Source of the DNA: an uncultured Anaerolineales bacterium
GTDB taxonomy: Bacteria; Chloroflexota; Anaerolineae; Anaerolineales; E44-bin32
Direction of reading: 5' to 3'
DNA length: 64,000 nt
Assembly: GCA_965603565.1 (NCBI GenBank)
Contig: CBFDDM010000001.1
Coordinates: forward strand, 7,299-71,298
Below, piece by piece: positions 5,041 to 37,096 of this stretch (positions within the stretch are counted from its first letter, which is position 1; the number at the start of each line of letters is the position of its first letter). The notes below the pieces were generated by a model that was given only the letters and a program-made list of their open reading frames with translations, searched no databases and was not told where the DNA came from. The position numbers were made by a program, and so were the translations under genes.

Positions 5041-5041
5041 C

Positions 5042-6457: not shown

Positions 6458-6461
6458 GCGT

Positions 6462-7527: not shown

Positions 7528-7555
7528 TCTCAAGGTCACAACCGCAAATTCATTT

Positions 7556-19197: not shown

Positions 19198-20085
19198 CTA
19201 ATCATTCGTACGCACAAAACTCAACAACTCACGACTCACCGCTTCGGGCTCGTCGTGCTGGATCCAATGGGACGCTTCGGGGAAATGGACGATCCGTCCA
19301 CGCCGGCACCACTTCAGGCTATCATCGGCGGCGCGCTTGTCCAGTGCAACATCGCGGTCGCCCCACAAAATCAGTGTGGGTATATTGATCTTGCCCGTGG
19401 TCAATGTGTTGCCCAGATTTCGGAAAGCTGCCCGGTACCATGCCAGCATCCCTTTGAGGGCGCCTTTTCGTGCCCATGCCTGCTCGTAGCGCTGCAGATC
19501 CCTGCGCGAAAATGTGTCAGGTTTTCCGCTCGAGCGCAGAATAACCCCCGGCCCGGCCAATGACAACAGCAGTTCCGGGATAAGAGGTGTCTGGAAAAAC
19601 GCGATGTACCAGCTTTTGATGCGCTGCGCCCATGTTTCGCGCAACGCCTTGCGCAGCGCGGCGGGGTGCGGGACGTTGAGGATTCCCAACTTGCGCACTC
19701 GCGCGGGGTGGCGCGCTGCCGTCCACCAGGCTACCGCCGCGCCCCAATCGTGGCCGATCAGATCGACCTGCTCGCGATCGGCGGCGTCGATCAGCCCGAT
19801 CACGTCGCCGACCAGAGCGTCCATGCGGTAATCCGCCACCTTCGATGGTTTCTCGCTCAGGTTGTAGCCGCGTTGATCGGGAATCCAAACCGCGTACCCC
19901 GCATCGGCAAATGCCCCGATTTGATTACGCCAGCCGTACCAGAATTCGGGGAACCCGTGCAGGAGCAGCACCAACGGGCCATCGTCCGGCCCTGCTTGAA
20001 CGACATGCAGCGGGTTGTCCTGCACCTCGATCATCTTTGAGCGCAGGCTCGGGTGAATCTGCTCACGGTCCGCGGATGTGATCAA
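19198..20085 (-). CDS. alpha/beta hydrolase (epoxide hydrolase / haloalkane dehalogenase-like)
   Basis: LLLHGFPEFWYGWRNQ...DQRGYN.SEKP...GHDWGAAVAWW...HW.Q. Confidence 0.85.
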   Translation of the reverse strand: MITSADREQIHPSLRSKMIEVQDNPLHVVQAGPDDGPLVLLLHGFPEFWYGWRNQIGAFADAGYAVWIPDQRGYNLSEKPSKVADYRMDALVGDVIGLIDAADREQVDLIGHDWGAAVAWWTAARHPARVRKLGILNVPHPAALRKALRETWAQRIKSWYIAFFQTPLIPELLLSLAGPGVILRSSGKPDTFSRRDLQRYEQAWARKGALKGMLAWYRAAFRNLGNTLTTGKINIPTLILWGDRDVALDKRAADDSLKWCRRGRIVHFPEASHWIQHDEPEAVSRELLSFVRTND

Positions 20086-20471
20086 GTGGCATCCTTTCGA
20101 CGATTGGCCTCATCCAACAGAAAGCTGTTCAGCGCTTCCCGGGCTGCGGGCAGCTTCTGAACGGCGGCCCAATCGACGTCCTCCACACTCAGCTCTGTGC
20201 TTGAAGTCAGAACCATAAAAGGATCCTCCTCAAGCTGCTCCCCTGCGATGCACACCACGCGCCAATACCGGCTCAGCTCAGCCTGCCAGGCTTTATAGTC
20301 CCTGCGCAGGATTTCTCGCAAGCCGCGATACTCCTCGCGCTGCTCGCTCGAGACCAGACCGGAACGATATACCGCCAGGAACATCCGCCCCAATCGATCC
20401 CAACGTTCAACCCAGGCCTCGAACTCCGGCCAATCAAGCTGCTCCAGCAGCGTCGCCGTGACCGGATTCAC
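20082..20471 (-). CDS. hypothetical protein
   Basis: 129 aa. Stop overlaps the downstream gene start. No family recognised. Confidence 0.45.
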   Translation of the reverse strand: MNPVTATLLEQLDWPEFEAWVERWDRLGRMFLAVYRSGLVSSEQREEYRGLREILRRDYKAWQAELSRYWRVVCIAGEQLEEDPFMVLTSSTELSVEDVDWAAVQKLPAAREALNSFLLDEANRRKDAT

Positions 20472-20495
20472 GAAAAGGTTCTTCTGAATATCATG

Positions 20496-21779
20496 CTAAG
20501 CGATCTTCTTGATCAACTGCTCGCCGAACTCAGCCGGCTCGCTGCGCTCGACAACCAGTTCATCGGCGTCGTGGAAGTGCATGAAATCGCGCATGCTCCT
20601 GGAGACATCCTGAATAACGCTCCCGTTCAACTTCACGCCGGGTTCAAGGTAAAGCGCCTCGAGATGAAGACACCTTGCCTGGCGGTCCAAGCGCGGGTCA
20701 AAACGGCCGATCAGTCCTGAGCGATACAGAATCGGCAGGCAGTAATAACCCCAGATACGCTTCTCCGCCGGCTTATACGCCTCCAACACCTGCCTGAAGC
20801 CCCAGAACTGCTCATCCCTCCCGCCCGGATAAAAAAGCGTATCAAATGGATTCAGAAACGTCGTGCGTTCCGCCTGAATCTCGCCATCTGCACAGCGCTG
20901 CAGATCGCCCATGCGATCGCGGTGCAGGATGAGCGTGTGCGCCTCTCCGTCGTGCAGCCGAGCTGAGACCCGCCTGAAAACGCCTTCCTGCAAGAGCGTC
21001 TCGATCGTGTCTTTTACCGATGTCCGCGAGAAATCATGAGCGTAGTCCGGCAGTTGATTCTGCGCGCAAATCCCAGTTGCCAGCATGGCGCGCTCCAGGA
21101 CGTGACGGGTGGTCGCGTCCTCGCCCGGGTCACTGCGGTCGACCCACTCGGGGATGACACGTTCGCTCAAATCGTATGCTCGCTGGAAACTCTCACGATT
21201 GGCGATCGCCAGATCTCCGCAATCGAACAGATACTCAAGCGCTGACTTGGCCGGCTTCCAATTCCACCAGGTGCCCCCACCTCCGCCCTCGTGTTCGAAA
21301 TCACGCACAAACAAAGCGCCCTCGGTCTCAATGCGATCGTTAACATGGCGCAGCAGCTGCTGATTCGATTCATTCGCAAGCCAGCGCCGCCGCCGTTCGC
21401 TGCGTCCGGGGCGGCTGGATTGCATGCGCTGCAGCCGGTAGCGATATTCGCTCAACGGCAGCAAACACGCAGCATGAAACCAGTATTCGAACAGCTGTCG
21501 TTCGTTCTTGTCAGCAGAGTCCTGCGGCGATGCGTAGACCAGAACGTCCAGATCCCCGGGGTCGTAGCTGCCCAAACGACTCCAGATCGCCAGGTAATGT
21601 GAGCGCTGCACGCGCTGCAACGTGTCGATCTGAACGCACATCAACCGCTCAACCAGGTCGGCGATCGCCTGACTGGTAACCTCTGATTCAGCGCCATTCG
21701 GTGTAGTTAGTTGTTGGGTATAAAGAGCTAGCCGACGGACGGCCTCAAGCGGATAAACGGTCCTATCCGAACTACTCAT
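20496..21779 (-). CDS. YcaQ/AlkZ-family winged-helix DNA glycosylase (interstrand-crosslink repair)
   Basis: LYTQQL...VQIDTLQRVQRSHYLAIWSRL...LFEYWFHAACLLP. Carries a Q-I-D (Q-phi-D) motif, as in the YcaQ branch. Confidence 0.7.
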   Translation of the reverse strand: MSSSDRTVYPLEAVRRLALYTQQLTTPNGAESEVTSQAIADLVERLMCVQIDTLQRVQRSHYLAIWSRLGSYDPGDLDVLVYASPQDSADKNERQLFEYWFHAACLLPLSEYRYRLQRMQSSRPGRSERRRRWLANESNQQLLRHVNDRIETEGALFVRDFEHEGGGGGTWWNWKPAKSALEYLFDCGDLAIANRESFQRAYDLSERVIPEWVDRSDPGEDATTRHVLERAMLATGICAQNQLPDYAHDFSRTSVKDTIETLLQEGVFRRVSARLHDGEAHTLILHRDRMGDLQRCADGEIQAERTTFLNPFDTLFYPGGRDEQFWGFRQVLEAYKPAEKRIWGYYCLPILYRSGLIGRFDPRLDRQARCLHLEALYLEPGVKLNGSVIQDVSRSMRDFMHFHDADELVVERSEPAEFGEQLIKKIA

Positions 21780-22956: not shown

Positions 22957-23919
22957 ATGACCGGAAAACAGCCGCTGCCACAACCTACCACGCCCGTCCC
23001 GCCGCTCGAGACACCAGAAAGCAGTCATGAAGGACATGCCTCACGATGGGTGGGGGCCTTGCTGTGCTCGCTCTCGGCGGCCGGCTTCGCAAGCCTCACC
23101 GTGCTGGGCAAGATCGCGCTCAATAGCGGTTTGAGCCTGGTGACGATCCTGGCGCTGCGCTTCGGCGGTGCGGCACTGCTCCTTTTCGCTTACCTGGGTC
23201 TCGTCCGCAGACAGTCGCTTTATCCAGGGAAGCGGTTGGCGCTGATGCTCTTCGCATTGGGGGCGCTGGGCTACGCCGGGCAGTCCACGCTCTACTTCGC
23301 CTCGCTCGACCGCAACCCGGCCTCACTCAACGGGATCTTGCTCTATGTGTATCCGGTCTTCGTAGCGCTCATCGGCTGGCTGGTCAACCGCACACCGCCG
23401 ACAGGGCGTGAGTGGGGTGCCATGGCGCTGGCGCTGTTCGGCGTGCTCCTGACCGTTCAAAGGCCAGGCGTGGACCTCGGTTTCACTCACGCTGATCCAA
23501 TAGGTGTGCTCTTGGTCTTGGGCTCCGCGCTGTGGTACTCAGTGTATATTGTGACCAGCGACCGCGTCGTCCATCGACCTGGCGCCTGGCTGAGCACGGC
23601 CTGGATCTCGTTAGGAGCATCGTTCAGTTTCGCGCTCTTCGGTGGCATCGCCGGTCTGCTCAACTTCAATCTATCACCACAGGCGATCTGGATTTTGGTC
23701 GCGATGGTTTTCGTGAGCACGATCCTGGCGCTGGGTACCTTCTTCGCCGGCATGCGCATCGTCGGGCCCACCGCCGCCTCGCTGCTCAGCACGCTGGAAC
23801 CGGTCTTCACCGTGCTGCTGGCGATGCTGGCGCTCTCCGAACGTCTCGCGAGCATGCAGATTCTGGGTGGATTGTTTGTGCTCGCAGCCGTCATTTTGCT
23901 GACTTTGCCGGAAAAATAG
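22957..23919 (+). CDS. EamA/DMT family transporter
   Basis: ORF 22780..23919. Start moved to MTGKQPL (ATG 22957) to avoid overlapping lipA. About 10 TM helices in two EamA-like halves. Confidence 0.8.
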
Positions 23920-23992
23920 CGCGTCCCCAAGTAACTTCAGGGGTTTATCCCTATGAACAACGATCGCGTTTTACCCAATCAAGGAGATTGCC

Positions 23993-24163
23993 ATGCGTCT
24001 TACTCCACCCACCAAGAATGTGTTTTATCTCTCGGCCGCGCTGGTCGTGGTCGGCCTGATCGCCCAGATCGTCACGATCCCCTTCCTCTCAGGTGTCGCC
24101 TTCTGGATCGTGCTCGTAGGCTACGTGCTGCTATTTCTCGGAAACACGATGAAGGGATTCTAG
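23993..24163 (+). CDS. small two-helix membrane protein (56 aa), not in the ORF track
   Basis: Own translation: MRLTPPTKNVFYLSAALVVVGLIAQIVTIPFLSGVAFWIVLVGYVLLFLGNTMKGF. AAGGAG lies 5 nt upstream of the ATG. The listed 80-aa ORF in another frame is Arg-rich and not protein-like. Confidence 0.4.
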   Translation: MRLTPPTKNVFYLSAALVVVGLIAQIVTIPFLSGVAFWIVLVGYVLLFLGNTMKGF

Positions 24164-24281
24164 AAACCGACTGCGACATCGTAGAGACGGGGTGACCCCG
24201 CCCATACCGTGTAGATTGGGCAATCAAGCCATGCGGGCATACGCATGGTTTCTCACTGGGGAGCTTGAACCGCTTGGATCT

Positions 24282-26849
24282 TCAATCGGGCGTGGTCTGA
24301 AGCAGTGCTTCCACCAGCCGCACAGTGAGCGTCTTGACTTCGCCCCCTCCTGAACCCACCGGGCCTACACAGGCCGGGCATCCGTCGGCACAGCGGCACG
24401 TCCGCACCAGATCGAGGCTGCCCTTAAGGAGTTCATCGTGGAGTTCATAGAGGCGTTCTGAGAATCCCAGACCCTCCGGAATGCGATCGTATAACGTGAT
24501 CGTCGGGGCTTTGGTTTCCGAGGCGCGCACTTCCGTGATCACCCCCAGATCACGCGGGTCGCACATCAGGTAGAGCGGGGCGATGTTGGAGAACGCGTAC
24601 GCCAACCCGCCCAGCGCGCTGCGCTTGCCGCGCGCCGATTCGGCACGCTGGTGGCAGGAGGGGCAGAGCGTGATCAGGTTATCGAGCTCGTTCGCCATGA
24701 GGTCGTTGCGGTTCTCACCCGGGATGTAACCAAACGAGCGGAACGGCTTCAGATGGTGGACATCGTGGGCACGACCCGCTTTTTCCGGCGCGCCGCACTG
24801 CCGGCAGATAAACCCATCGCGTACTCTAGCCGCCTCGCGCGCCTGTGACCAGCTCGGCCCGTAGTCCTGGGGCGGCAGCAGCACCCCTTCTTGTTCCATC
24901 TGCTCGACGGTCTCCGGCGCGATCCATAACCAGTACGCCGAGGTCTCAAAATCGCGCGGGGGCAGCTCGATCGACCCGTAACCGAGCGTCTCGTGCGTGT
25001 AGCGTTTGACCTTGCGGTAGGAGGTAGCCTGCGCTGTGATCTGCACCCATCCGTGCGCTCGCCGCGCCAGTTGGTTTTCATCGGCATCGTAAGCCTCGAG
25101 CACATCCATGTCGACCGTGTCGGAGGCATCCGTGTAGTAGTCGATCTCTGCCGGCTTGACCAGCGCGATGCCATTATCCCAATCCAACTCCTGGACGATG
25201 TAGGTGCTGCCCTCGTGAATGTAAATGGCGCCCTCATGAATCAACAATGGTGCGGTGGCGCGATCGACCTCACCGATCACCACCGGCCGCCCTTCGCCGG
25301 TGTCCTGGATCACGATCGTGTCGTCCGTGCTTGCTCGCAGCGAGACAGATTCGGCCGGATAGGTATCTGCGACCCAATGATAGTTCCCGTTTGAACGATG
25401 CAGCTCGTCTTGATCGGCGAGGTGCTCTAGCAGCTCGTCGATCTCATCGAGTGTCCCGAACCCTTCTCCAATTTCAAAGGGCAGTTCGAATGCTGCACAG
25501 CGCACATGCCGCAGCAGGATCGCCAGGTTGTCCGGATTAATCAGGCCCATCTCGGGTGAGCGCTCGAAAAGATATGCGGGGTGAGTGGCGATGAACTGAT
25601 CAAGCGGTGCGGCGGAAGCAACCAAAACCGCCGCAGAGATCTCGGCCCGCCGCCCGGCGCGTCCGGCCTGCTGCCACAGGCTGGCGATTGTTCCAGGGTA
25701 GCCGGCCACGACCGCCGCTCCCAGCCTGCCGATATCCACACCCAACTCAAGCGCGTTGGTCGCCACGACGCCGCACACCTCACCGCTTCGCAAGCCACGC
25801 TCGATCTCGCGCCGTTCGAGCGGAAGGTACCCGCCACGGTAGCCGCGGATCATGTTCGGATCGCCGCCTGCTTGCTCGTAAGCGTCGCGTACATATCCAA
25901 GCAGGACTTCGGTCGTGAGACGGGCGCGGGCGAACACGGCAGTCTGCACCTCACCGCGCAGGAACAAATCGGCCACGCGCGTCGATTCGAGCGTATAGGC
26001 TCGGCGGATCCCCAGCGACGGCTCGATAACCGGTGGGTTGTAGATGATCACGTGCTTCTCAGCCCGCGGCGCGCCGTCGAGGTCCTGCGGGATGAGGTGG
26101 ACCGGCGCTTCGATCAGCCGCTCGGCCAGTTCTTTCGGATTGGCAATCGTCGCCGAGGTGAGCACGAACTGCGGCGCAGCCCCATAGAACTGGGCGATAC
26201 GGCGCACGCGGCGCAGCACATTAGCGACGTTCGAACCGAAAATGCCGCGATAGACGTGCAGTTCGTCGATCACGATCCAGCGCAGGTTCTCAAAGAAGTT
26301 CGCCCAGCGCGGGTGGTGGGGCAGGATACCGGTGTGCAGCATATCGGGATTGCTGATCAGCAGCCGCACATCCTCGCGAATCGCCCGGCGCCTGGCCGGC
26401 GGCGTGTCACCGTCGTAGGTCTCCACGCGCACCTGATCTTGCGCTCCCAATGTGTCCAGGAACTTAGCCAGTGCGCTGGCTTGATCCTGCGCGAGCGCTT
26501 TCGTCGGAAACAGGTAGAGCGCGCGTGCCTCTGAGTTATCCAGAAGTGTCTGCATCACTGGGACGTTGTAGCAGAGCGTCTTGCCCGAAGCTGTGCCGGT
26601 CACCACGACCACGTTGTCGCCAGCAAGCGCAGCCTCGATCGCTGCGCCTTGATGGCTGTAGAGCGGCGCTTGCCCAGATTCGTGCAGCGCGCTGATGATG
26701 CGTGCGTGCATCGCCTCCGGGAAAGGTACATGCCGCGCCGGGTGAGCCGGCAGCCGCTCCCAGGCAGAGACATTGGACATGAACTGCGGGTCGAGACGCA
26801 GTCGCTCGAGTACATTCTCAACGGTCATTGTGGGCGGATTATATTGCAA
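24282..26849 (-). CDS. SF2 DEAD/DEAH-box helicase of the DUF1998 (MrfA/YprA/SftH-like) type, with an embedded HNH nuclease motif
   Basis: Motif I TGTASGKT, motif II VIDELH, motif III TSAT, motif VI QQAGRAGRR. C-terminal CRCADGCPAC. HNH-like CRQCG..HDVHHLKP..N..DNLITLCPSCH at aa ~680-735. Confidence 0.85.
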   Translation of the reverse strand: MQYNPPTMTVENVLERLRLDPQFMSNVSAWERLPAHPARHVPFPEAMHARIISALHESGQAPLYSHQGAAIEAALAGDNVVVVTGTASGKTLCYNVPVMQTLLDNSEARALYLFPTKALAQDQASALAKFLDTLGAQDQVRVETYDGDTPPARRRAIREDVRLLISNPDMLHTGILPHHPRWANFFENLRWIVIDELHVYRGIFGSNVANVLRRVRRIAQFYGAAPQFVLTSATIANPKELAERLIEAPVHLIPQDLDGAPRAEKHVIIYNPPVIEPSLGIRRAYTLESTRVADLFLRGEVQTAVFARARLTTEVLLGYVRDAYEQAGGDPNMIRGYRGGYLPLERREIERGLRSGEVCGVVATNALELGVDIGRLGAAVVAGYPGTIASLWQQAGRAGRRAEISAAVLVASAAPLDQFIATHPAYLFERSPEMGLINPDNLAILLRHVRCAAFELPFEIGEGFGTLDEIDELLEHLADQDELHRSNGNYHWVADTYPAESVSLRASTDDTIVIQDTGEGRPVVIGEVDRATAPLLIHEGAIYIHEGSTYIVQELDWDNGIALVKPAEIDYYTDASDTVDMDVLEAYDADENQLARRAHGWVQITAQATSYRKVKRYTHETLGYGSIELPPRDFETSAYWLWIAPETVEQMEQEGVLLPPQDYGPSWSQAREAARVRDGFICRQCGAPEKAGRAHDVHHLKPFRSFGYIPGENRNDLMANELDNLITLCPSCHQRAESARGKRSALGGLAYAFSNIAPLYLMCDPRDLGVITEVRASETKAPTITLYDRIPEGLGFSERLYELHDELLKGSLDLVRTCRCADGCPACVGPVGSGGGEVKTLTVRLVEALLQTTPD

Positions 26850-26889
26850 ATAGAGCGCAGAGACTCGGGATCTGGCTGCGGGCGCACTG

Positions 26890-27573
26890 TCATTCGAGGG
26901 GGTTGACGTAGACCTGGTGTGTCACGCGCGGGCCGAGCACAACCGCTTCGGGCTTGCCTTCGACCTTCAGCGTAAGATTTTCGTCGAACGGAGAGTAATC
27001 CTGGACATGTAGTTCGGCGTCTGGCTGTAGACCCAACTCCATGAGGTGGCGCAGCAGCGCGGGGTCGCTATCGCGCACACGCTGCACAACGGCACGCTGC
27101 CCGCCGCGCAGTTCACTCAGACGCACGCTTGTCGAGGGTGGGATCTCGAGATCGCGGGTGGGGATCGGGTCGCCATGCGGGTCGTGGGTGGGATCACCCA
27201 GCACATGAGCGATACGCTCCTCCATCTTCTCGGAGATCACGTGCTCGAGCCTGTCGGCCTCCTCGTGCACTTCGTCCCATGGGAAGCCCAGGACCTGGTG
27301 CAGGAACATCTCGATCAGACGGTGGTGGCGGATGGTCTGCAGCGCCACATTACGGCCGTGCTCGGTGAGCACCACGCCGCGGTGTTTGCGGTACTCCAAC
27401 AATGGCGGGTCGGTCTCGGCCAGCTTCTGCACCATGCCGGTCACCGAAGCCGGCGTCACGCCAAGCCTCTCGGCCAGGCGGTTAGTCGTGGCGCGGTCAC
27501 CCTTGGAGGTCAATTCAAAGATGACCTTCAAATAGTTCTCTATCGATTCGGTCCACGCTTTTTCCATGAGCAA
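26890..27573 (-). CDS. DtxR/MntR family metal-dependent transcriptional regulator with C-terminal FeoA/SH3-like domain
   Basis: IENYLKVIFEL...TNRLAERLGVTPASVTGMVQKL...HHRLIEMFL...EADRLEHV...HDPHGDPIP. Confidence 0.85.
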   Translation of the reverse strand: MLMEKAWTESIENYLKVIFELTSKGDRATTNRLAERLGVTPASVTGMVQKLAETDPPLLEYRKHRGVVLTEHGRNVALQTIRHHRLIEMFLHQVLGFPWDEVHEEADRLEHVISEKMEERIAHVLGDPTHDPHGDPIPTRDLEIPPSTSVRLSELRGGQRAVVQRVRDSDPALLRHLMELGLQPDAELHVQDYSPFDENLTLKVEGKPEAVVLGPRVTHQVYVNPLE

Positions 27574-27607
27574 CCTTATTGTAGCCGTTTAACCCGAGCA
27601 CCCAAAA

Positions 27608-29044
27608 TCAAAGTGCAGCGAGCGTCTGCCAGATCTGCGCGACCAAGAACGTGACCACAAAACCTATCACGAGCGGCAGCAGCGCAGAGACCACCGTCCA
27701 TTTTAGATCACCGGTCTCTTTATAAATCGTGTAGACCGTCGTGCTGCAGGGATTGTGAATCAAGCTGAACAGCATCAGGTTCACACCGGTCAGCAGTGTC
27801 CAGCCTCCTGCGGTTAGGATATCCAGCGTCTGGATGGTCGATTCGAGCTCGAACATCACACCCGCCCCTTCCCCGATGCCCGTCAAGCCGGCGGTCAGCA
27901 CGGTCAGCATCATCACCGTTGGGATCACGATTTCGTTCGCCGGAATGGCGATGATATAGGCCATCAGGATGACGCCGTTCAGGCCAAGCAGCAATCCAAA
28001 GGGATTCAGGAAGGAGACCAAGTGTTCGGCGAGCGTCTGTCCGCCTAGCGAGAGATTGGCGCTCAACCAGATTACCGCGCCCGCTGGAAGTGCAAAAACC
28101 ACGGCGCGCCAGAGCACGAAAATCGTGCGGTCGATGATCGATGTGTAGATTGTCTGCCAGATCCGTGGTGGGCGGTAAGGGGGCAGTTCGAGACTGAATG
28201 TCGACAGCTCGCCCCTGAGCCATGTTCGTGAAAGAAACCATGAAACCACGAAGGTCAGCAGGACCCCCAGAAGAGCGATGCCAACGACTGCCATAGCGGA
28301 GAAAAGTCCGGCGAGATGCGCGGGCACAAGAGTGCCGATGAAGATCGTCGCGATCAGGATCTGCGTTGGCCAGCGGCCATTGCACAACGCAAAGTTGTTC
28401 GTGATGATGGCGATCATGCGCTCGCGCGGCGAATCGATGATCCGGGTGGCTATCACACCGGCGGCATTGCACCCGAATCCCATCATCATGCTCAGAGCCT
28501 GTTTGCCGTGTGCGCCAGCCTTTTTGAAGATGTTGTCCAGGTTGAACGCCAGGCGCGGTAGAAAACCGAAATCTTCAAGCAGTGTGAAGAGCGGGAAGAA
28601 AATCGCCATCGGCGGCAGCATCACGCTTACCACCCAGGCCGTAGCGAGATACATGCCGTCGATCAAGACGCCGCTCAACCACCACGGAAACCCGATTGCG
28701 CTTGCGCCCTCTTTCAGAAAAGGATAGACGCTCCCGATCAGCACGCGTGAGATCATCTGGGAAGGCACATTCGCGCCCGAAATCGTGAGCCAGAAGATCA
28801 GCGTGAAGAGCAAGATCATGATTGGAAAACCCCAGATCCTGCTCGTAACCACACGGTCTATGGCTCGATCCAGATCGAAACGTCGCTCTTCGCCGGGCCG
28901 CGTAACTGCTCGGTCGGCGATGCGTGCTGCGTCGGTGTAAATCGCTTCGACGAGCCGTTCGTGGATATCGCCTCCGATCTCCCAGCGGATCACGCGCGCC
29001 CTATCGATAAGCTTTTTCGAAGGGCCCTTTGCCGACACGGTCAT
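27608..29044 (-). CDS. ferrous iron transporter FeoB, membrane (nucleoside-recognition/gate) part encoded as a separate gene
   Basis: 478 aa, polytopic. Begins where full-length FeoB leaves its GDI domain ([12 protein letters not shown]...). The ATGA overlaps the upstream G-domain gene. Confidence 0.85.
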
Positions 29045-29889
29045 ACCGCCGCCTCCATCGTTTTGCCCGCTCCTGGATCTTCGGCGATCACTTCCATTTC
29101 GACGATCGTACCTAATTCACCATTTTCAATGGCGGCGATGATGCGTTCATCTCCGTCCATCAATCGCAACGCGACCCAGCGCCTGTTGGGCAAGTAGGGG
29201 TAGACCCTCTCAAGCTCGCGCACGATCTCTGCAACCGCGGTCTCTAGCTCCGGTGAAAGGGCTTTGATGCGGTGAGGTTTTGTGCGGGTTTCCCCGGTCG
29301 CAATCTCGTGGATCGCAAGGATCAATTCATCGAGCCCTTCACCATAACGTGCGCTGGTCGGCACGACGGGGACACCTAGGTCCCGAGCCAATCTGCGGTG
29401 GTCAACTTCCAGACCGTGACGTTTGGCCTCGTCCATGAGGTTGAGGCAGACGACGACACGATCCGTGATCTCCAGAATCTGCAGCACCAGATTCAAGTTG
29501 CGCTCGAGGCGGTTGGCGTCCGCCATCACGACGGTCACATCCGGTCGGCCGAAGAGGATGAAATCACGCGCAACCTCCTCGTCCAGCGAGGTCGAGAGGA
29601 GTGAATAGGTACCGGGCAAATCGACGATTTTGTAGTTGTAGCCCCCGTACTCAAAGCCGCCTTCCGCCCGGGTGACCGTCTTGCCCGGCCAGTTGCCGGT
29701 GTGCTGGCGCAGCCCGGTGAGGGCGTTGAACACGGTGCTCTTGCCAGTGTTGGGATTCCCAGCCAGCGCAATGACGAAATCCCATTCCTGCATATCCACG
29801 CCCAGCTTCTTGAGATTGGCGGCGTTGTGCACCGGACAAGTTTCGCAGGGCGCGTCTTTTCTTGCCTGCTTGATATCTACTTCACTCAT
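29041..29889 (-). CDS. FeoB N-terminal GTPase (G domain plus helical domain) encoded as a separate gene
   Basis: G1 [10 protein letters not shown]2 GKTV, G3 DLPG, G4 NLMD. About 40-aa N-terminal extension with CETCPVH. No TM segments. Confidence 0.85.
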
Positions 29890-30913
29890 GTGCCTGTATA
29901 CCCTGCTTTCGTATGATGATTTGACCCGCCTGTTCGGCCCGCAGCGCGATCAAAGCCCCGCGTATGCGGTAGGCGACCGGGTCGCCGCTCGCGCTCGTGT
30001 ACTCTGCACACACCATCGTGCCAGGCAGCAACCCAAGATCCATCATCCTGCGGCGTTCTGCACCCCGCAACGATGGCGCCAGGGCAAGTACTTCGGCTTG
30101 CTCTCCAATGGAAAGGCTGTTCATTTTCTCGCCCTTCAACTGCGCTTGATCGTCACCGATCGGGATGACATGGATGTTCGCTGCGACCAGCGGTGCTAAA
30201 ACGTGTTCATCGCCCCCTGCCCAGAATCGGATCCGCTGTGGATCCCGGCTCAATAGCAGAAGCGGCATGCCTGGGTGCAGCCCTTCGGCGACGATCTGGG
30301 CGAAGACCGTCTCGGGCTCATCTTCCAGGTGAACGATCTGGAGGGCAGAGTCGTTTTCCTCAACCGCCGCGAGTGTAATCCCTGCCACCTCTCCCATATC
30401 CCCGTCTGCAGTCGGAATCGGGTCGCCATGCGGGTCATAGACGGGATGACTCAGCCTTGCAGATAATTGTTCAAGCTCCTCGTGGGTCAGCATGTGTTCT
30501 AACCGGTCGGCTTGAACGTGCCATTCGGTCTCGGCGAATCCGGTTTCGTCGGCGAGGTAGCGCTCCCACAGTCGGTGGGCGCGCAGTAAGTGCAGGGCAA
30601 GATCGCGACCGGATGGGGTCAGCACAGGCAGCTCAGCCTCGAAATCCACCAACCCCCGTTCGTCTAGCTCAGAGATCAGTGTGTGCGCATCGTCAACGCT
30701 GATATGCAGCGCTCCCGCCAGGCTGTGCAGGGAAGTCCTGCGACCGGAAATTTCGCAATCGAAGATATGCTTGATCGCGTCTTCCCTGCGAGTTTTGTTG
30801 GTCACCTTTCGGGCATAGCGCCACTGTGCCAAGAGACCGCGCTCGGGAAAGAAGACCCAAAGCACGGCCGCGATCGCTGCCGAACCAATAAGAAGTGTGA
30901 TTAGATTTTCCAT
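29882..30913 (-). CDS. membrane-anchored DtxR-family regulator fused to two FeoA domains
   Basis: ORF 29882..30949 (TTG). I prefer ATG 30913 ([22 protein letters not shown] = TM helix). Then w[23 protein letters not shown], and two FeoA/SH3-like segments. Confidence 0.75.
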
Positions 30914-30997
30914 TGACCTCAACGTCTGGGCGAATGTGGTGAGATTCAATCGCAGCCAGTGCTTCCGCCTACCACTAAACCCAAGTTAGTCTAGACG

Positions 30998-31026
30998 CAT
31001 TATATAGTTAGTTTAGGCTAATTTCA
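30998..31026 (-). promoter_or_regulatory. promoter TTGAAA-17-TATAAT with a DtxR/IdeR-type iron box in the spacer
   Basis: Minus strand reads TTGAAA TTAGCCTAAACTAACTA TATAAT. TTAGCCTAAACTAA (31007..31020) matches the right 14 nt of the TTAGGTTAGCCTAACCTAA consensus with 1 mismatch. Confidence 0.6.
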
Positions 31027-31048
31027 AGGGCTTTCCGGATCTTCGTGT

Positions 31049-31801
31049 TCAGACGACGATCACGTTCTGCAGCAGCATCATCGCCAGGAAACCCGCCATC
31101 GCCGCGATGGCGCTGAACTGGCGCTGATCATGGTTGGCGCGGCTCTCGGGGATCATCTCGCTGAGCACCAGGAAGAACATCGCCCCGGCAGCCAGGCCAA
31201 ACGCGAAGGGCAGGATCTGCCTGAACGCCACGACGGCCAGATAGGCCGGGATTGCAGCGATCGGCTGTGGCAGGCTGGAGAAGATCGACCAGCCTACGCA
31301 TTTCCATCCGCTGACGCCATCGGCGCGCAGCGGCAGCGAGACGGCCACGCCCTCGGGAATATTGTGGATCGAGATGGCGATCGCCATGATCAACCCAAGG
31401 TTGGTCTCGCCCGACCCGTACGCCACGCCCACCGCCAAACCCTCCGGGATGCTGTGGAAGAACATCGTCGCCAGGATCAGCGTCACTCGCTTGGCGCTGG
31501 CGTCGTTGATGCCTGAAAGCGTGAAATCGTGGTGGTCGATGTAGCGCGAAGCCACACCGAAGATGAGCGTGCCCGCCAGCACGCCGAGGGCGACCTGCAG
31601 GATGCCGCCGTCATCTACGCCGGGGATGATCAGGTTGAAAACGGAAGCCGAGAGCATCATGCCGCCGGCAAACGCCCAGCTCAACCCTGCTATTGATTCC
31701 GGGAATCGGCGCACAAAGACAAACGGCAGACCACCCAGCCCGGTGGCCAACATCGTGATCGTAGCGGCTACAACAGCCATAAGGAGTCCGGAATCCATCA
31801 A
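31049..31801 (-). CDS. ZIP family metal transporter (ZupT-like)
   Basis: HSIPEGLAVG and HNIPEGVAV motifs, 8 TM helices. ATGA overlap with the upstream TrmB gene. Confidence 0.85.
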   Translation of the reverse strand: MMDSGLLMAVVAATITMLATGLGGLPFVFVRRFPESIAGLSWAFAGGMMLSASVFNLIIPGVDDGGILQVALGVLAGTLIFGVASRYIDHHDFTLSGINDASAKRVTLILATMFFHSIPEGLAVGVAYGSGETNLGLIMAIAISIHNIPEGVAVSLPLRADGVSGWKCVGWSIFSSLPQPIAAIPAYLAVVAFRQILPFAFGLAAGAMFFLVLSEMIPESRANHDQRQFSAIAAMAGFLAMMLLQNVIVV

Positions 31802-32604
31802 GATGCTTTGCTCCTCTCATCCGTGGTCGATAAGCTTTCAAACACGGCCCGGTCTTCAGGCGAAAGCCTGGAAAGAAGTTCATCCCCGAGCTGCGCAGCG
31901 ATGCGTTGGGTGAACATCTCCATCCAGATGAACTGGCGTGTGATCGCCACCATGTTGCGGTTGTTCGTTACCGTCGCCAAGACTGCCACGTCCATATCCG
32001 AGATCAGTGACTGTGATTCGTCGGTCACAACCACCAGTGTGTGGTCCAACTCCTGGAGTTCGCTCTCAAGCGGCGGGTGGTGGGCCACTTCGCCACACTC
32101 CAACATTCCCGCGCCGGTCAGCAGTGTGCGCAGCTGCAGATCGCGATCACAGGCAGCCTGCACAACCGCCGAGAGTGCTTCCAGTGCCTGGTCGGGCAGA
32201 ACCAGCATGACTTCGTCCTGGGCGCCGGCGATCATCTCTCGGGCATAAGCAAGCACCGCTTCGCGACCGTTGATCGTCCACAGCCGCTCTTCACGCTGGT
32301 CTGCGTACGCTGCGGTTAGTCCTTTTGATAGTACGCGCATGTGTGTTTCGTGCCCCGCCTTCAAACTGCGCAGCAGCACCTCCGGAGGCAGCGGCCGGTA
32401 GAGCGTTGACTTCTCACCCTCGCTGGCCAACACCGCCCCGCGACCGGACAAACGGCTCAGCGTCTCGTAAACCATCGAGCGCGGCACCCCAGACGCCTTT
32501 GAAAGTTGGTAGCCTGAAGCGGGGTGTTCGCTCAGAAGCGCCAAATAGACCTTGGCTTCATACTCGGTAAAGCCGACCTGGTTGAGAGTATCGATCAGGT
32601 TCAT
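31798..32604 (-). CDS. TrmB family transcriptional regulator
   Basis: LNQVGFTEYEAKVYLALLSEHPASGYQLSKASGVPRSMVYETLSRL, plus a C-terminal TrmB-type effector domain. Confidence 0.8.
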   Translation of the reverse strand: MNLIDTLNQVGFTEYEAKVYLALLSEHPASGYQLSKASGVPRSMVYETLSRLSGRGAVLASEGEKSTLYRPLPPEVLLRSLKAGHETHMRVLSKGLTAAYADQREERLWTINGREAVLAYAREMIAGAQDEVMLVLPDQALEALSAVVQAACDRDLQLRTLLTGAGMLECGEVAHHPPLESELQELDHTLVVVTDESQSLISDMDVAVLATVTNNRNMVAITRQFIWMEMFTQRIAAQLGDELLSRLSPEDRAVFESLSTTDERSKAS

Positions 32605-32616
32605 GCCATCTCTCGT

Positions 32617-32669
32617 ATAGTTGTTCTATATATAACGACTATTATGGCTGTGGGAGTTCAACATGTCAA
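32617..32669 (-). promoter_or_regulatory. promoter TTGACA-17-CATAAT followed by 26-bp inverted repeat (candidate TrmB operator)
   Basis: Minus strand: TTGACA (32669..32664), CATAAT (32646..32641), then ATAGTCGTT-ATATATAG-AACAACTAT (9-bp arms, 1 mismatch) at 32642..32617. Confidence 0.55.
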
Positions 32670-32696
32670 GGTCTTTATCCGTCAGTAGCAGCGGGG

Positions 32697-33476
32697 TCAA
32701 TCGAGGTCAATATCAAGCTTCAGGCTCACCGGACAGTGATCAGAGCCAGTCACGTCCTTATGAATGCGCGCTTCCAGGATACACGGCATCAGTCCCGGCG
32801 AGACGAAGGTGTAGTCCAGCCGCCAGCCGACGTTCCTGTCGCGGGCGCCGCCCCAATAAGCCCACCAGCTGTAGGCGACCTTCTCGGGATGCAGCGCGCG
32901 AAAAGCGTCGATGTAGCCGGCGTCCAGAAAGCGATCGATCCACTCCCGCTCGCGCGGCAAAAAGCCGGATGTGTTTTTGTTCTGTCTCGGGCGGGCAAGG
33001 TCGATCTCGCGGTGGGCAGTATTGATGTCGCCGACCAACACGATTTCACGACCAACCTCGGTCAGCCCTTCGCACAGCTGGAATAAGCGCTCCTTGTAGC
33101 CCATCTTGAAATCGACGCGGCTGTGGTCGCGTGAGCCATGCGGCACGTAGGAGTTGATCAGCACGAAGGCGCCGTAATCTGCCACGATCGTGCGGCCCTC
33201 TTGATCGTAGGCCGGATCGCCTATGCCAATATCGATGTGCGTGGCAGGGAGGCGCGTGAAAAGCGCCACGCCGCTGTATCCTTTACGCGCTGCCGGTGCC
33301 CATGTGGAGTGGTATGAACCGGGGGAGCGCAGTTCAGGATCAAGCTGCTCGGGATGAGCTTTGATCTCCTGCAAACCGAGCACATCTGGCTGCGCGGAAT
33401 TCAACCAATCCAGGAACCCTTTCCTGGCCGCGGCGCGAACACCGTTCACGTTCCAGGAATAAATCGCAAGCGACAT
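32697..33476 (-). CDS. xth: exodeoxyribonuclease III
   Basis: YSWNVNGVRAA...LQE.K...GYSGVA...VPHG...GD.N.AH..IDL...RLDY...SDHCPV. Confidence 0.9.
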   Translation of the reverse strand: MSLAIYSWNVNGVRAAARKGFLDWLNSAQPDVLGLQEIKAHPEQLDPELRSPGSYHSTWAPAARKGYSGVALFTRLPATHIDIGIGDPAYDQEGRTIVADYGAFVLINSYVPHGSRDHSRVDFKMGYKERLFQLCEGLTEVGREIVLVGDINTAHREIDLARPRQNKNTSGFLPREREWIDRFLDAGYIDAFRALHPEKVAYSWWAYWGGARDRNVGWRLDYTFVSPGLMPCILEARIHKDVTGSDHCPVSLKLDIDLD

Positions 33477-33508
33477 CTCAGATTAGCTCTCCAGGGGGAA
33501 GAATAAAT

Positions 33509-33754
33509 TCAGGTTTTAAGGAGGTAGCACTGTGCGCTGCCGTCCGAGGGCGAGCAAGCCGTGCGCAGTGGGCAAAGGTCACATTTGTCGTTTTCAAGCG
33601 CGCTCAATCTGCCCATCTGCACGAGCGTATCGAGCATACCAGCAACGACCACGGGGTCCCTGCCCAACGCTTGCGCGACCTGGCGTGCAGTTAACGCTCC
33701 GTCCTGGTCCCTGAATTGGTCAAGGATCTCCGCCAGCACCCCGGACTTAGCCAT
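33509..33754 (-). CDS. feoC: FeoC-like winged-helix protein
   Basis: 81 aa, directly after feoB. LAEILDQFRDQDGALTARQVAQALGRDPVVVAGMLDTLVQMGRL, plus a Cys-rich tail CDLCPLRTAC. Confidence 0.65.
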   Translation of the reverse strand: MAKSGVLAEILDQFRDQDGALTARQVAQALGRDPVVVAGMLDTLVQMGRLSALENDKCDLCPLRTACSPSDGSAQCYLLKT

Positions 33755-33757
33755 CGC

Positions 33758-35968
33758 TCACCCTAAAAGGCTCCCGATCTGGAAGACGACTGTCGCAGCC
33801 ACCCATGCAATCCCGGATTGATAGAGGGCGGAAAATAGCGCCCAGCGGCCGCCGAATTCCGATCGGATCACGCTGAGAGTGGCGATGCACGGTGTGTACA
33901 AGAGCACATAGACCAGGAACGCCAGACCTGCTGCCGGCGTAAACACGCGTGTGAGCACGCTGCTCAGTGCGGTCTCGCGAGCTTGAGCGTCAGCAGGTTC
34001 GGGGAAGATGGTGATACCTGGCGTCAGCGTCTCCAACACCTCCCGACCTGCGTCGACATTGGCGCTCACGAATCCAGCGCCGATGCCCGTCAGCTGCTGG
34101 ATAAATTGAGGCTCAGGATCAAGCGTTTCCAGCGGCGAGCCGAGGTAAATCTCGGACATTGTGGAGACGACGACCTCCTTGGCCACCAACCCGGACATCA
34201 AAGAGGCCGAAGCTTCCCATGTGCCGAAGCCCGCCGGCTCAAACACCGGCGCGACCGCTGCGCTGGCGCGACCAAATACACTGTCCTCAATCGATGTCGC
34301 ACCGAGCGGGAACTGGAGCAAAATCCAAACGATGATCGATGCCAGGAGGATGACCGTCCCGGCGCCCTCGATGAAGTCACGCGTGCGCACCGACACATGT
34401 GCCCACAGACCGCTCAGCGTAGGCAGACGATAACGCGGCAGCTCCATTACAAACTCAGTCCTTCCGCCCGTCTTCAAAACGGTGCGCGAGAAGACCCACC
34501 CGACCAGGATTGCCGCGGCGACACCCAGCGCATATAGCACCCAGATTACCTGGTCGGCACGCCTTCCAAAAAGCGCAATGCCGAAAAGCACGTAAACAGG
34601 CAACCGCGCCGAACAGGACATCAATGGAACCATCAGCGCGGTCAGCAGGCGATCGCGCCTGTTCTCAAGCGTACGGGTGGCGTAGATCGCCGGCACTGCG
34701 CAGCCAAAGCCCAGGATCAAAGGCACAAAACTCCTGCCGTTCAATCCCAGAAACGACAGGAATCGGTTCATCACAAACGCCGCTCGAGAAAGATAGCCGC
34801 TGTCCTCCAGCAGGGCGATGAAAACAAACAGCACGATCAATCCAGGCATGAATACCAACACGCCTCCAACGCCGGCGATGACGCCCTCTACGATTAACGC
34901 TTTGAGCCACGCCGGCGCTGCCAGTGCACTCAAAGCAGCCGCGCTCCATGCGGTCAGCGGGCCGCTCACCACCGCGTCGATCCAATCCAAATAGGGTGCT
35001 GATACGTTCACCACCAGGCGGAAAATAAAGTACATGATCGCCAGGAAGATCGGAATGCCCAGGACAGGATGCGTCACGATCCGGTCCAGCTGGTCCGAAA
35101 ACGCGCTTTCGGCTCCGCGATCGAACGCCAGGATCTGATCGGAAAGCCGGCCTACCTCTGCAAAGCGCACGTCCGCGACGTGGAATTCAATCCCTTCGGG
35201 AAGCGCTGCTTGCAAGCGCTCTTTGCTGTCGGTTATATTTCGAACAATCCCGTCAGGCGCCTTGCTGTCCATTTTCTCTATCAATTGTCGCCCGTTGGCC
35301 AGCATTTCGAGCGCCAGCCACCGGGAGCGAAATTTGCTCGGCAGCTCCTGCGCTTGCTCCAGCTGTGGTCGCAAGCGGGCGATTTCCCGCTCGACTTCCA
35401 CGCCGTACTTGAGCTCCAGTCCCTCTGTCCGGCTGTACCCATTTGCGCGCGCAATTATGATCTGATCCGTAATAGCTTGCTTGAGCGTCTGAATTCCTTC
35501 GCCCTTGTTTGCAGCCACGCGTATAACCGGCACTCCACCGAGCTGCTCTTCAAGGTTCTGGACGTCGATAAGCTGGCCCTGTTTATCGGCCAGGTCGCTC
35601 ATGTTCAGAGCCAGAACGGCGGGTATGCCCGTTTCGAGAATCTGGATCGCCAGGTACAGGTGGCGCTCCAGGTTGGTGGCATCCAGCGCGATGACGACCA
35701 GGTCCGGCGATTCTTCCAGCAGGTAGGATCGGGCGACGTTCTCCTCATCCGAATAGGCTGCCAGGCTGTATGCTCCTGGAAGGTCAATCACATCAAACGA
35801 GTGCGCATCGTGCTCGTAACAGCCCTGTTCGCACGCCACCGTCTTGCCGGGCCAATTGCCGACATGCTGGCGTGAGCCGGTCAGTTGATTGAAGATCGTA
35901 GTCTTGCCGGAGTTCGGGTTGCCGGCAATGGCGACTTTATAATGCTTACCAGCGGTCACGCTGATCAC
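33758..35968 (-). CDS. feoB: ferrous iron transporter FeoB (full length)
   Basis: 736 aa. G1 GNPNSGKTT, DLPG, NMSD, followed by the polytopic membrane domain. Confidence 0.92.
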   Translation of the reverse strand: MISVTAGKHYKVAIAGNPNSGKTTIFNQLTGSRQHVGNWPGKTVACEQGCYEHDAHSFDVIDLPGAYSLAAYSDEENVARSYLLEESPDLVVIALDATNLERHLYLAIQILETGIPAVLALNMSDLADKQGQLIDVQNLEEQLGGVPVIRVAANKGEGIQTLKQAITDQIIIARANGYSRTEGLELKYGVEVEREIARLRPQLEQAQELPSKFRSRWLALEMLANGRQLIEKMDSKAPDGIVRNITDSKERLQAALPEGIEFHVADVRFAEVGRLSDQILAFDRGAESAFSDQLDRIVTHPVLGIPIFLAIMYFIFRLVVNVSAPYLDWIDAVVSGPLTAWSAAALSALAAPAWLKALIVEGVIAGVGGVLVFMPGLIVLFVFIALLEDSGYLSRAAFVMNRFLSFLGLNGRSFVPLILGFGCAVPAIYATRTLENRRDRLLTALMVPLMSCSARLPVYVLFGIALFGRRADQVIWVLYALGVAAAILVGWVFSRTVLKTGGRTEFVMELPRYRLPTLSGLWAHVSVRTRDFIEGAGTVILLASIIVWILLQFPLGATSIEDSVFGRASAAVAPVFEPAGFGTWEASASLMSGLVAKEVVVSTMSEIYLGSPLETLDPEPQFIQQLTGIGAGFVSANVDAGREVLETLTPGITIFPEPADAQARETALSSVLTRVFTPAAGLAFLVYVLLYTPCIATLSVIRSEFGGRWALFSALYQSGIAWVAATVVFQIGSLLG

Positions 35969-36338
35969 CTTCCGATTCGCTCAAACGCTCTCCTGGACCG
36001 CGCCAATGCTTCCAGCCGCGCCGGCCACCTCTACCGCCAGCCCTGCGATGGCCGCCTGCCCTACGCCAGGCCCGACGCCCCTGGTTCTGTATCTGCATTC
36101 CCTCTTCAATTTGCTCGACCTCGATCTTCTGGGCCGTTTCGCGGTCGATCGCCAGCTGCGAGCCACGCACGCGCAGCAGTATCGGCTGACCCCTGGATGC
36201 CTGAAGCACCTTGATGGTCGTCCCTGGTGTGAGGCCCATCTCGGTGAGGCGTAAGCCACAGCGACGGCAGCGCACAAACCCGAGCATGCGCACTTCAGCC
36301 CCTGCTGGAACTTGATCGAGCCTCATCGCTTTGCTCAT
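35946..36338 (-). CDS. feoA: FeoA with Arg/Gly/Trp-rich C-terminal extension
   Basis: RLDQVPAGAEVRMLGF...LTEMGLTPGTTIKVLQAS.GQPILLRVRGSQLAIDRETAQKIEV is a FeoA SH3-like core. About 55 extra residues follow. Overlaps the feoB start by 23 nt. Confidence 0.75.
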   Translation of the reverse strand: MSKAMRLDQVPAGAEVRMLGFVRCRRCGLRLTEMGLTPGTTIKVLQASRGQPILLRVRGSQLAIDRETAQKIEVEQIEEGMQIQNQGRRAWRRAGGHRRAGGRGGRRGWKHWRGPGERLSESEGDQRDRW

Positions 36339-37070: not shown

Positions 37071-37096
37071 ATTAAGTTGCGGTGGAGTGATGCGCA

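Follow-up and report, generated by a model that had tools for sequence, protein, structure and literature searches.

What does a DNA-repair helicase of the MrfA/YprA family do with an endonuclease domain embedded in its own polypeptide? The question is raised by a minus-strand gene at 24282..26849 of a 64,000-nucleotide (nt) stretch of a contig from an uncultured Anaerolineales bacterium (CBFDDM010000001.1, assembly GCA_965603565.1). We refer to this whole stretch as the window; positions are counted along it, and all searches of gene surroundings cover these 64 kb. An initial annotation, made from the letters alone, had read the gene as a DUF1998 helicase possibly fused to an HNH nuclease and had favoured repair over defence. 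We regard it as highly probable that the encoded protein is an MrfA orthologue carrying a functional HNH domain that is under selection, with the activity itself being a prediction from sequence. As an overall reading we lean, with modest confidence, towards a translocase-coupled repair helicase-nickase.

An MrfA orthologue with one inserted domain

The list of open reading frames (ORFs) and the translation return the gene at exactly 24282..26849 (-), encoding 855 amino acids (aa) when read from a TTG at 26849. Public gene calls for a protein that is 100% identical (P0001) begin at M8 of that translation (MTVENV), giving 848 aa at 24282..26828 from an ATG at 26828, with the stop codon at 24282-24284. 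The best match among solved structures is YprA/MrfA of Bacillus subtilis (PDB 6ZNP, E 1.8e-223 by phmmer), which bears out the family assignment, and every superfamily 2 (SF2) helicase motif and the terminal Cys cluster quoted in the initial annotation could be located in the translation.

The RecA1/DEAD domain (aa 65-240, 26130..26657; Pfam PF00270, E 3.7e-32) carries motif I, TGTASGKT (aa 84-91, 26577-26600), motif II, DELH (aa 195-198, 26256-26267), and motif III, SAT (aa 232-234, 26148-26156), all on the minus strand like the features that follow. The RecA2/Helicase_C core (aa 337-401, 25647..25841; PF00271, E 2e-10) ends in motif VI, QQAGRAGRR (aa 393-401, 25647-25673), and is succeeded by a winged-helix domain of the HRQ1/MrfA type (WHD_HRQ1, aa 437-506, 25332..25541; PF22982, E 8.1e-9). 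An OB fold and a connector (CON) beta-sheet then form the 'canopy' (aa ~507-645, 24915..25331), which is collinear with MrfA as far as residue 634 of the latter and in which an AlphaFold2 (AF2) model places beta-strands at aa 601-642. The MZB/DUF1998 zinc-binding domain (aa 745-832, 24354..24617; PF09369, E 7e-21, profile aa 749-828) includes the four-Cys site CRCADGCPAC (aa 818-827, 24369-24398; C818, C820, C824 and C827). Four closely spaced C-terminal cysteines are a criterion of the MrfA family (10.1101/426304; PMC7797055).

The alignment with 6ZNP falls into two collinear blocks, pairing query residues 18-645 with MrfA 12-634 and query residues 745-832 with MrfA 647-734, so that approximately 90-100 extra residues stand where MrfA has 12 (~635-646). 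Measured against 6ZNP, the insertion spans aa 646-744 (24618..24914) and consists of a short helix, a conserved YGPxW...RxRD lead-in and the HNH region. A stricter limit, aa 657-744 (24618-24881), is obtained by alignment with two MrfAs that lack the HNH, from Brevibacillus and from a metagenomic locus, L084; both have only three residues across these columns. Since the alignment break coincides with the published domain limits of MrfA (OB 491-556, CON 557-630 and MZB 631-749; Roske et al., PMC7797055), we place the insert at the CON/MZB junction, where it follows the final strand of the connector and precedes the opening helix of the MZB. The assignment of the MZB is further supported by the AF2 model of the C-terminal part, which matches 6ZNP in Foldseek (E 7.5e-11). 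The suggestion that the HNH might sit within the zinc-binding site is therefore not upheld by the alignment with MrfA, which puts it outside the four-Cys site.

Apart from this one inserted domain, the order NTR-RecA1-RecA2-WH-OB-CON-MZB is collinear with MrfA, and family and domain order are the same as in MrfA (6ZNP/6ZNQ/6ZNS), SftH of Mycobacterium smegmatis and eukaryotic Hrq1. Identity to bacterial MrfAs outside the insert is ~48-53% (47.7% to the Brevibacillus protein and 52.7% to the mrfB-linked MrfA of L084), with DELH, motif VI and the four-Cys MZB all shared. By these sequence relationships the window protein is classed as an MrfA/YprA orthologue in the repair branch of the YprA family. 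It is related to, and not a member of, the actinobacterial-type equivalog TIGR03817 of NCBIfam (DECH_helic), scoring 657.4 bits against a cut-off of 874.1 in two stretches that cover profile positions 5-624 of 742.

The insert as a predicted HNH nuclease

The HNH string reads CRQCG (682-686), HDVHH (695-699), N720 and DN724LITLC729PSC732H733, at nt 24651..24806; the ~24630..24857 proposed initially was correct to within about 50 nt. The nuclease core, with a beta-beta-alpha-metal fold as predicted from sequence and model, occupies aa 682-736 (24642..24806), a stretch that exceeds the gathering threshold of Pfam PF01844 (HNH; 33.4 bits, threshold 21.4, E 5e-8). There are two separate Cys sites, the [CxxC]2 site of the HNH at 682/685/729/732 and that of the MZB at 818/820/824/827. 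The HNH pattern is thus no chance arrangement of Cys and His residues; nor can it be the DUF1998 four-Cys site misread, because the latter lies ~85 residues further on, and the profile result rules out the alternative that the residues are merely the standard zinc site of that domain.

HNH families of PHROG also match the insert (phrog_8446, E 6.8e-18), and among solved structures it matches by sequence the HNH nicking endonuclease of Geobacillus phage GVE2 (5H0M, E 2.8e-5 by phmmer) and the HNH of IscB. In the active-site alignment with 5H0M, H699 corresponds to GVE2 H93, N724 to N109 and H733 to H118, and C682, C685, C729 and C732 align with the zinc ligands. Mutation of H93, N109 or H118 lowers or abolishes nicking by the GVE2 enzyme (PMC5304195). 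On this alignment, H699 is the predicted general base, and H699, N724 and H733 are the predicted catalytic residues.

An AF2 model of aa 600-855, built from 119 sequences, has a mean predicted local distance difference test score (pLDDT) of 93.6 and a predicted template-modelling score (pTM) of 0.85, which suggests that the HNH packs against CON/MZB in a defined manner. When aa 650-748 are modelled alone, pLDDT exceeds 90 over the core. The models predict a beta-beta-alpha arrangement, with aa 696-699 and 725-728 as the strands and aa 730-745 as the helix that comes after them. In Foldseek the composite CON-HNH-MZB model is dominated by MrfA and finds HNH proteins at E ~0.2 only; the HNH-only model was therefore searched separately. 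Its top PDB matches are all HNH nucleases, namely 5H0M, McrA, Cap5, Cas5-HNH and IscB, and the match to 5H0M has probability 1.0, template-modelling (TM) scores of 0.57/0.61, a root-mean-square deviation of 2.7 A and 23% identity in the structural alignment. In a library of viral structures the same model again retrieves HNH proteins (E 1e-7, 42% identity). Profile, alignment and fold thus identify the insert as a genuine HNH domain with an intact active site, for which nuclease activity is predicted.

Conservation and selection

Ten residues are invariant in all 65 full-length relatives, which extend down to ~50% identity: C682, C685, H698, H699, N720, N724, C729, C732, H733 and E737. The wider set of 119 C-terminal sequences, down to 42% identity, retains C682, C685, H699, N720, N724, C729 and H733 without exception and C732 in at least 90%; H698 and E737 are absent from the invariant and conserved lists of that set. 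The possibility that the catalytic His and Asn are not conserved among orthologues thus fails. Together with the Pfam and structure matches, this conservation substantiates the proposal that helicase and HNH domain are fused in one polypeptide.

The pairwise ratio of nonsynonymous to synonymous substitution rates (dN/dS) over the HNH codons is 0.04-0.19 (median 0.107), close by the 0.084 of the rest of the gene. The HNH has a mean p-distance of 0.395, the remainder one of 0.414, and pairwise distances in the two parts correlate with r = 0.77. These values indicate that the HNH has been selected as strongly as the helicase and that both have evolved together.

Distribution across Anaerolineae

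All 120 of the 120 best full-length homologues (71-100% identity) have both PF01844 and PF09369, and those with names are from Anaerolineales or Chloroflexi metagenome-assembled genomes. A profile spanning the HNH and the start of the MZB retrieves 846 clusters at 90% identity, and 119 of the best 120 are annotated with both domains. A scan of one genome per species gives at least 599 pattern matches; 570 of these could be confirmed as relatives, some of them possibly HNH-only or MZB-only. The best 80 loci match the HNH and MZB start, 72 over nearly the whole query and eight in truncated form, mostly at contig ends. Nearly all belong to the Chloroflexota class Anaerolineae (Anaerolineales, Thermoflexales, Promineifilaceae, Ardenticatenaceae and Caldilineales), and the cluster names agree. 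From this distribution the HNH-bearing form of MrfA (hereafter HNH-MrfA) is judged to be class-wide in Anaerolineae and vertically inherited.

A search of 72,556 plasmids yielded no HNH-bearing copy, the best matches being HNH-less MrfA-like helicases. In 2.9 million viral contigs there was no HNH-bearing helicase either; the matches there were four free HNH genes, with 31-40% identity. Plasmid helicases of haloarchaea and Gloeobacter align unbroken across the insert and were therefore considered as HNH-bearing, but Pfam finds no HNH in the two examined, one from Natronococcus and one from Gloeobacter.

The HNH-helicase is also present in three contigs labelled otherwise: L002 (JAIWHF010000007.1, Methanosarcinales archaeon), L055 (DASRZI010000344.1, Zixiibacteriota) and L073 (DATHSI010000335.1, Sulfomarinibacteraceae). 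L002 is syntenic with the window, and because the gene order is common to Anaerolineae loci, all three are probably mis-binned Chloroflexota contigs. Apparent genes on long contigs for HNH+MZB proteins of just 200-300 aa were likewise weighed as stand-alone genes and rejected: L089 is a probable frameshift split and L090 is cut at a contig end. In L089 (2257-4813; ERZ25039477 contig_30793, 793 kb) gene calling divides the helicase between two genes that overlap by 59 nt, one of 600 aa with DEAD/Helicase_C and one of 270 aa with HNH/MZB, most likely through a frameshift error. Splits of this kind swell the database count of short 'DUF1998 domain-containing' entries.

Relationship to MrfB

The Brevibacillus MrfB, whose gene lies directly 3' of mrfA in L083, was used as the probe for partner nucleases. 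In agreement with the initial annotation, no mrfB-like gene adjoins the helicase, and the 64-kb window as a whole gives no tblastn match at E <= 1 and no PF13482-like gene. For want of such a gene in the window, the helicase falls with the 'YprA only' arrangement described in a survey of the YprA family (PMC12458937).

By tblastn, an mrfB-like gene lies immediately 3' of the helicase in five of the 80 related loci (L036, L039, L052, L056 and L059), which form one subclade. In L036, the one among the five in which the catalytic HNH motif was read out, the mrfB-like gene starts 12 nt past the helicase stop and encodes a DEDD-type 'FLDVETTGL' motif and a PF13482 domain. YprB/MrfB homologues are moreover abundant in Anaerolineae and Chloroflexota, often apart from any helicase; some are linked to an HNH-less MrfA (L084) and some stand alone (L086 and L088). 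Since HNH and MrfB co-occur in five loci, the HNH appears from sequence to be an addition to the MrfA-MrfB pair rather than a simple replacement of MrfB.

The L084 locus (3695-9081) has a canonical HNH-less mrfA-mrfB operon encoding proteins of 757 and 420 aa. Next in order come an acetyltransferase gene and one that matches DNA_alkylation (PF08713) weakly. Outside the insert, the window protein is as close to this MrfA as to its most divergent HNH-bearing relatives.

Origin of the insert

A search with the insert alone against 1.84 billion representatives gave 616 matches at E <= 1e-10. The best 150 comprise 41 MZB-linked (helicase) sequences, 14 of them full length at 826-948 aa, 94 small proteins with a C-terminal HNH (median 262 aa) and 15 others. 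In the small proteins (P0144-P0270, for example P0168, P0182 and P0212) the HNH is 50-60% identical to the helicase insert, and those examined have N-terminal zinc-ribbon/zf-FCS-like repeats and fall into phrog_1271, with E values as low as 8.6e-49. They are similar to phage nicking endonucleases that combine a zinc ribbon with an HNH (PMC3592412). Because these phage-type zinc-ribbon proteins are its closest non-helicase relatives, the insert likely arose by capture of a phage-type HNH. All of the small zinc-ribbon HNH proteins that were looked up come from Logan assemblies.

Other members of the family have different extra residues at the same place. In the YprA-like helicase of Gloeobacter morelensis plasmid pGMOR1 (L082 5653-8499), a Cys-rich insert of 94 aa (CxxxxC...CxxC), which is not an HNH, occupies the CON/MZB junction, and the helicase of Natronococcus occultus plasmid 2 (L081 5878-8601) has 38 additional residues there. 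The junction evidently tolerates insertions, since the Gloeobacter and haloarchaeal helicases carry others, and from the sequences compared it seems a hot spot for them in this family. The Natronococcus helicase gene is preceded, with a 4-nt overlap, by a gene for an RNase_H_2 (YprB-like) plus HhH protein.

An intein or an active homing insertion was considered and rejected: Pfam finds no Hint domain, the insert is just ~90-100 aa long, it is present in 120 of 120 homologues and in the best 80 loci, and its divergence tracks that of the host protein.

A proposed helicase-nickase and its alternatives

In MrfA, single-stranded DNA enters a funnel built by RecA2, OB, CON and MZB; upon DNA binding the MZB turns by ~63 degrees, dragging the CON/OB canopy with it, and the displaced strand is thought to pass between MZB and RecA2 (PMC7797055). 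MrfA and SftH are described in the papers on them as 3'-5' DNA helicases. In the current MrfAB model the helicase peels off the adducted strand and MrfB degrades it; the model names no incision enzyme and invokes unknown partners (10.1101/426304; PMC11194089).

For the window protein we propose that the SF2 motor would engage single-stranded DNA where there is a lesion, a gap or a stalled fork, and would travel 3'->5' in the manner of MrfA and SftH. The HNH would be carried on CON/MZB, the parts that in MrfA form the wide DNA entry funnel and rotate, and could thus meet the DNA ahead of the motor, at the junction between single strand and duplex, and nick one strand. A nick made in cis would constitute the incision that allows the damaged strand to be peeled off and degraded, either by an MrfB-type 3'-5' exonuclease, linked in one subclade and probably unlinked elsewhere, or by another exonuclease. 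Such a translocase-coupled nickase is to be expected because the HNH is placed on the moving part of the funnel that faces incoming DNA and because its closest characterised relatives are nickases. Nuclease activity, nicking as opposed to double-strand cutting, coupling to translocation and a role in repair are all features that we infer.

It is tempting to speculate further that HNH-MrfA may be a single-polypeptide, UvrABC-independent machine for incision and unwinding, in which DNA binding and the ATP-driven rotation of the MZB 'drum' would gate the HNH onto the fork strand. The embedded HNH would then supply the missing incision activity of the MrfAB pathway, which in HNH-less bacteria such as B. 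subtilis would come from a separate endonuclease. Conformational control of the Cas9 HNH and the motor-coupled HNH of ZRANB3 are analogues for gating of this kind; nevertheless we hold the extended model only tentatively and consider it rather doubtful.

Several points weigh against the helicase-nickase that we favour. Where the HNH active site would lie with respect to the DNA is deduced from the published description of MrfA. The MrfAB phenotype of B. subtilis is narrow, being confined to mitomycin C, and MrfAB homologues complement between close relatives only (10.1101/426304). In 69 of the 74 loci compared, the neighbouring genes offer no clue to function. We see no sign of damage induction, since no LexA/Cheo-like box lies upstream of the gene (GAACN4GTTC with <=1 mismatch occurs 19 times against 24.7 expected) and a promoter/terminator scan of 23800-27800 gave nothing beyond shuffled expectation. 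Finally, in a neighbour-joining tree of the non-HNH columns two HNH-less MrfAs fall inside the HNH-bearing radiation, with the mrfB-linked group the first to branch, and the HNH-bearing proteins are monophyletic in 7 of 100 bootstraps only; this is a crude tree with short internal branches and very distant outgroups, and we do not count it as evidence of multiple gains.

Three other explanations have to be considered. The embedded HNH may have taken over the job of MrfB in most Anaerolineae, mrfB being lost and one polypeptide representing the whole pathway. The absence of an mrfB-like gene from the window and from 75 of the 80 related loci agrees with such a swap, as do the variability of the gene immediately downstream, which is often on the opposite strand in the 74 loci, and the precedent for activities in cis that is set by MrfA-MrfB fusions elsewhere (10.1101/426304; PMC12458937). 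Absence of mrfB from a 20-kb locus nevertheless means little, because the abundant YprB/MrfB genes of Anaerolineae and Chloroflexota often sit away from helicases, and the five loci in which an mrfB-like gene follows the HNH-helicase (with the HNH motif read out in L036) contradict the stand-in for MrfB that the initial annotation had implied. An HNH endonuclease and a DEDDh 3'-5' exonuclease also differ in chemistry, and we consider the swap unlikely. A further explanation, which we rate as equally unlikely, is that the HNH is a domesticated remnant of a phage-type homing element, now a silent structural zinc module or a DNA-binding surface of the canopy. It would fit with the phage-type zinc-ribbon proteins that make up 94 of the best 150 insert matches at 50-60% identity, with the viral HNH proteins that are its best structural matches and with the different 94-aa Cys-rich insert at the same junction in the Gloeobacter plasmid helicase. 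In-frame homing insertions that carry an HNH are known (PMC11855218), and YprA helicases of the defence branch have small zinc-binding inserts in the canopy (PMC12458937). A silent module is hard to reconcile, however, with the invariance in 65 of 65 relatives at ~50% identity of residues required only for catalysis (H699, N724 and H733, as well as H698 and E737), with a dN/dS of ~0.1, with the occurrence of the insert in every close homologue and not sporadically, with its divergence in step with the host protein (r = 0.77) and with the lack of an intein/Hint domain by Pfam. Were the HNH inactive, the finding would reduce to a phage domain domesticated as a structural module.

The last of these explanations, a helicase-nuclease directed at phages or plasmids that would degrade invading DNA, in the manner of Cas3, DruE and other YprA-like defence helicases, is in our view very unlikely. 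The YprA family does have a large defence branch with nucleases fused or adjacent (PMC12458937), HNH is a frequent effector domain in defence, and the PADLOC models for DruE, BrxH and SngC match the helicase core (E 1e-37 to 1e-39). These matches are limited, however, to the generic core at aa ~47-413, and MrfA, a repair enzyme, is a much nearer relative (E 1.8e-223). As to hallmarks of the defence branch (DISARM, Dpd, Druantia, ARMADA, BRIGADE and TALON), which include operon partners such as DrmB/C/MTase, DruH or McrBC-like proteins, a BrxA-like insert behind RecA1 and nuclease domains of the PLD type, the 74 loci show no conserved partners and Pfam finds no PLD or BrxA-like domain; nor are there defence or mobile genes nearby. 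Class-wide vertical inheritance under uniform purifying selection, the absence of HNH-bearing copies from the 72,556 plasmids and 2.9 million viral contigs, and the linkage of an mrfB-type repair partner in one subclade likewise speak against defence. MrfA orthology, vertical inheritance, housekeeping surroundings and the mrfB linkage in one subclade make a role in repair or housekeeping the more likely, in agreement with the repair role favoured at the outset.

Relation to known helicase-nuclease systems

ATP-driven translocases that bring a nuclease to a DNA junction are well represented by ZRANB3 (SNF2 translocase and HNH), Cas3 (HD and SF2), archaeal Hef (SF2 and XPF) and WRN. The principle of a nuclease delivered by a motor is shared also by DruE, a YprA-like helicase whose nuclease is a C-terminal PLD pair (PMC13192584), and by SaDinG, which joins a helicase to a DEDD exonuclease (PMC12345164). 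All of these differ from the window protein in helicase family or nuclease fold, and none has an HNH at the CON/MZB junction of a YprA-family helicase.

Within the family, pairing with a nuclease is known for MrfA with MrfB in Bacillus (10.1101/426304) and for Hrq1 with Pso2 in yeast. MrfA-MrfB operons and fusions likewise combine a YprA-family helicase with a nuclease; MrfB, however, is a DEDDh/RNase H-like 3'-5' exonuclease that is separate or fused at one end (10.1101/426304; PMC11194089; PMC12458937), whereas the predicted HNH endonuclease of the window protein sits inside the canopy, at a junction where MrfA has 12 residues, and is accompanied by no adjacent mrfB. The phage HNH endonucleases, namely that of GVE2 (5H0M), phrog_8446, phrog_1271 and the cos/terminase-associated enzymes (PMC3592412), share with the insert the fold, the [CxxC]2 site and the H...N...H triad. 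They are free-standing or terminase partners, whereas the insert is an internal domain of a chromosomal helicase and lacks the N-terminal zinc-ribbon array.

We found no description of this architecture in the literature searched on MrfA, DUF1998, Hrq1, SftH, YprA or Anaerolineae helicases with HNH, and it is not mentioned in the available main text and supplements of a survey of about 52,000 YprA-family proteins (PMC12458937). What is new is thus the member with an embedded endonuclease, the MrfA family itself being known. Helicase-nuclease fusions are common, which makes for moderate surprise; yet HNH-MrfA is class-wide, undescribed and bears on the incision step of MrfAB. MrfA/Hrq1-family helicases always seem to pair with a nuclease, and the MrfAB pathway is without a known factor for lesion recognition or incision. 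HNH-MrfA is a concrete candidate for the latter, adds an architecture to the repair branch of the YprA family and may offer a one-protein system in which to study how translocation and cutting are coupled. The tolerance of the CON/MZB junction for insertions could be useful in engineering helicase-guided nickases.

Gene surroundings

The helicase gene is flanked upstream by a DtxR/FeoA-type regulator and downstream by a divergent EamA transporter. Beyond these, the window has the make-up of ordinary chromosome, including tmk, gmk, pdxT, lipA, peptidases, oxidoreductases and a Feo/ZIP metal-uptake cluster; it contains no integrase, transposase, restriction or known defence genes, and tRNA and Rfam scans gave no matches. 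No neighbour is conserved across the 74 related loci, synteny being confined to the closest relatives.

The initial annotation had drawn on a YcaQ-type glycosylase gene and xth in the vicinity as support for repair. Both genes are real, with an AlkZ/YcaQ-like glycosylase encoded at 20496-21779 (-) (PF06224, E 5.3e-46) and xth at 32697-33476 (-) (PF03372, E 6.4e-34), and the glycosylase has a 'VQID' that we take to be the Q-phi-D motif of the YcaQ type. The AlkZ family is found in none of the other 80 loci, however, and xth in just three. Because the linkage is not conserved, proximity weighs little, and a 'repair island' of glycosylase, xth and helicase was rejected as evidence.

Beside the glycosylase gene lie an alpha/beta hydrolase gene (19198-20085 (-)), which recurs in three distant loci only, and a gene for a 129-aa protein without a Pfam match (20082-20471 (-)), which is in none of the 80 related loci. 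Compared with the closest syntenic loci, such as L002, the three genes at 19198-21779 seem to have been inserted between lipA and a gene of the metallo-beta-lactamase (MBL) fold.

Directly upstream of the helicase, 26890-37111 (-) is a dense metal-homeostasis cluster with xth in its middle. On the minus strand throughout, it includes three DtxR/MntR-type regulators with a C-terminal FeoA domain (26890-27573, 29882-30949 and 36335-37111), a FeoB split into an N-terminal GTPase gene (29041-29889) and a membrane gene (27608-29044), a second, full-length FeoB (33758-35968) with FeoA (35946-36338), a ZIP transporter (31049-31801) and a TrmB-like regulator (31798-32604).

Elsewhere in the window, an 817-aa ORF at 39713-42166 (-) has no Pfam match at E <= 1e-5, and further sizeable ORFs without a Pfam match lie at 353-1246, 6619-7656, 8646-9605, 46976-47764, 49298-50521 and 58139-59533. 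On the plus strand, the slightly overlapping ORFs 42623-43159 and 43126-43635 both align with one part of the ArsP_1 permease profile, its N-terminal half (~11-135 of 294); the stretch 42623-43635 has the look of two half-size permease genes in tandem.

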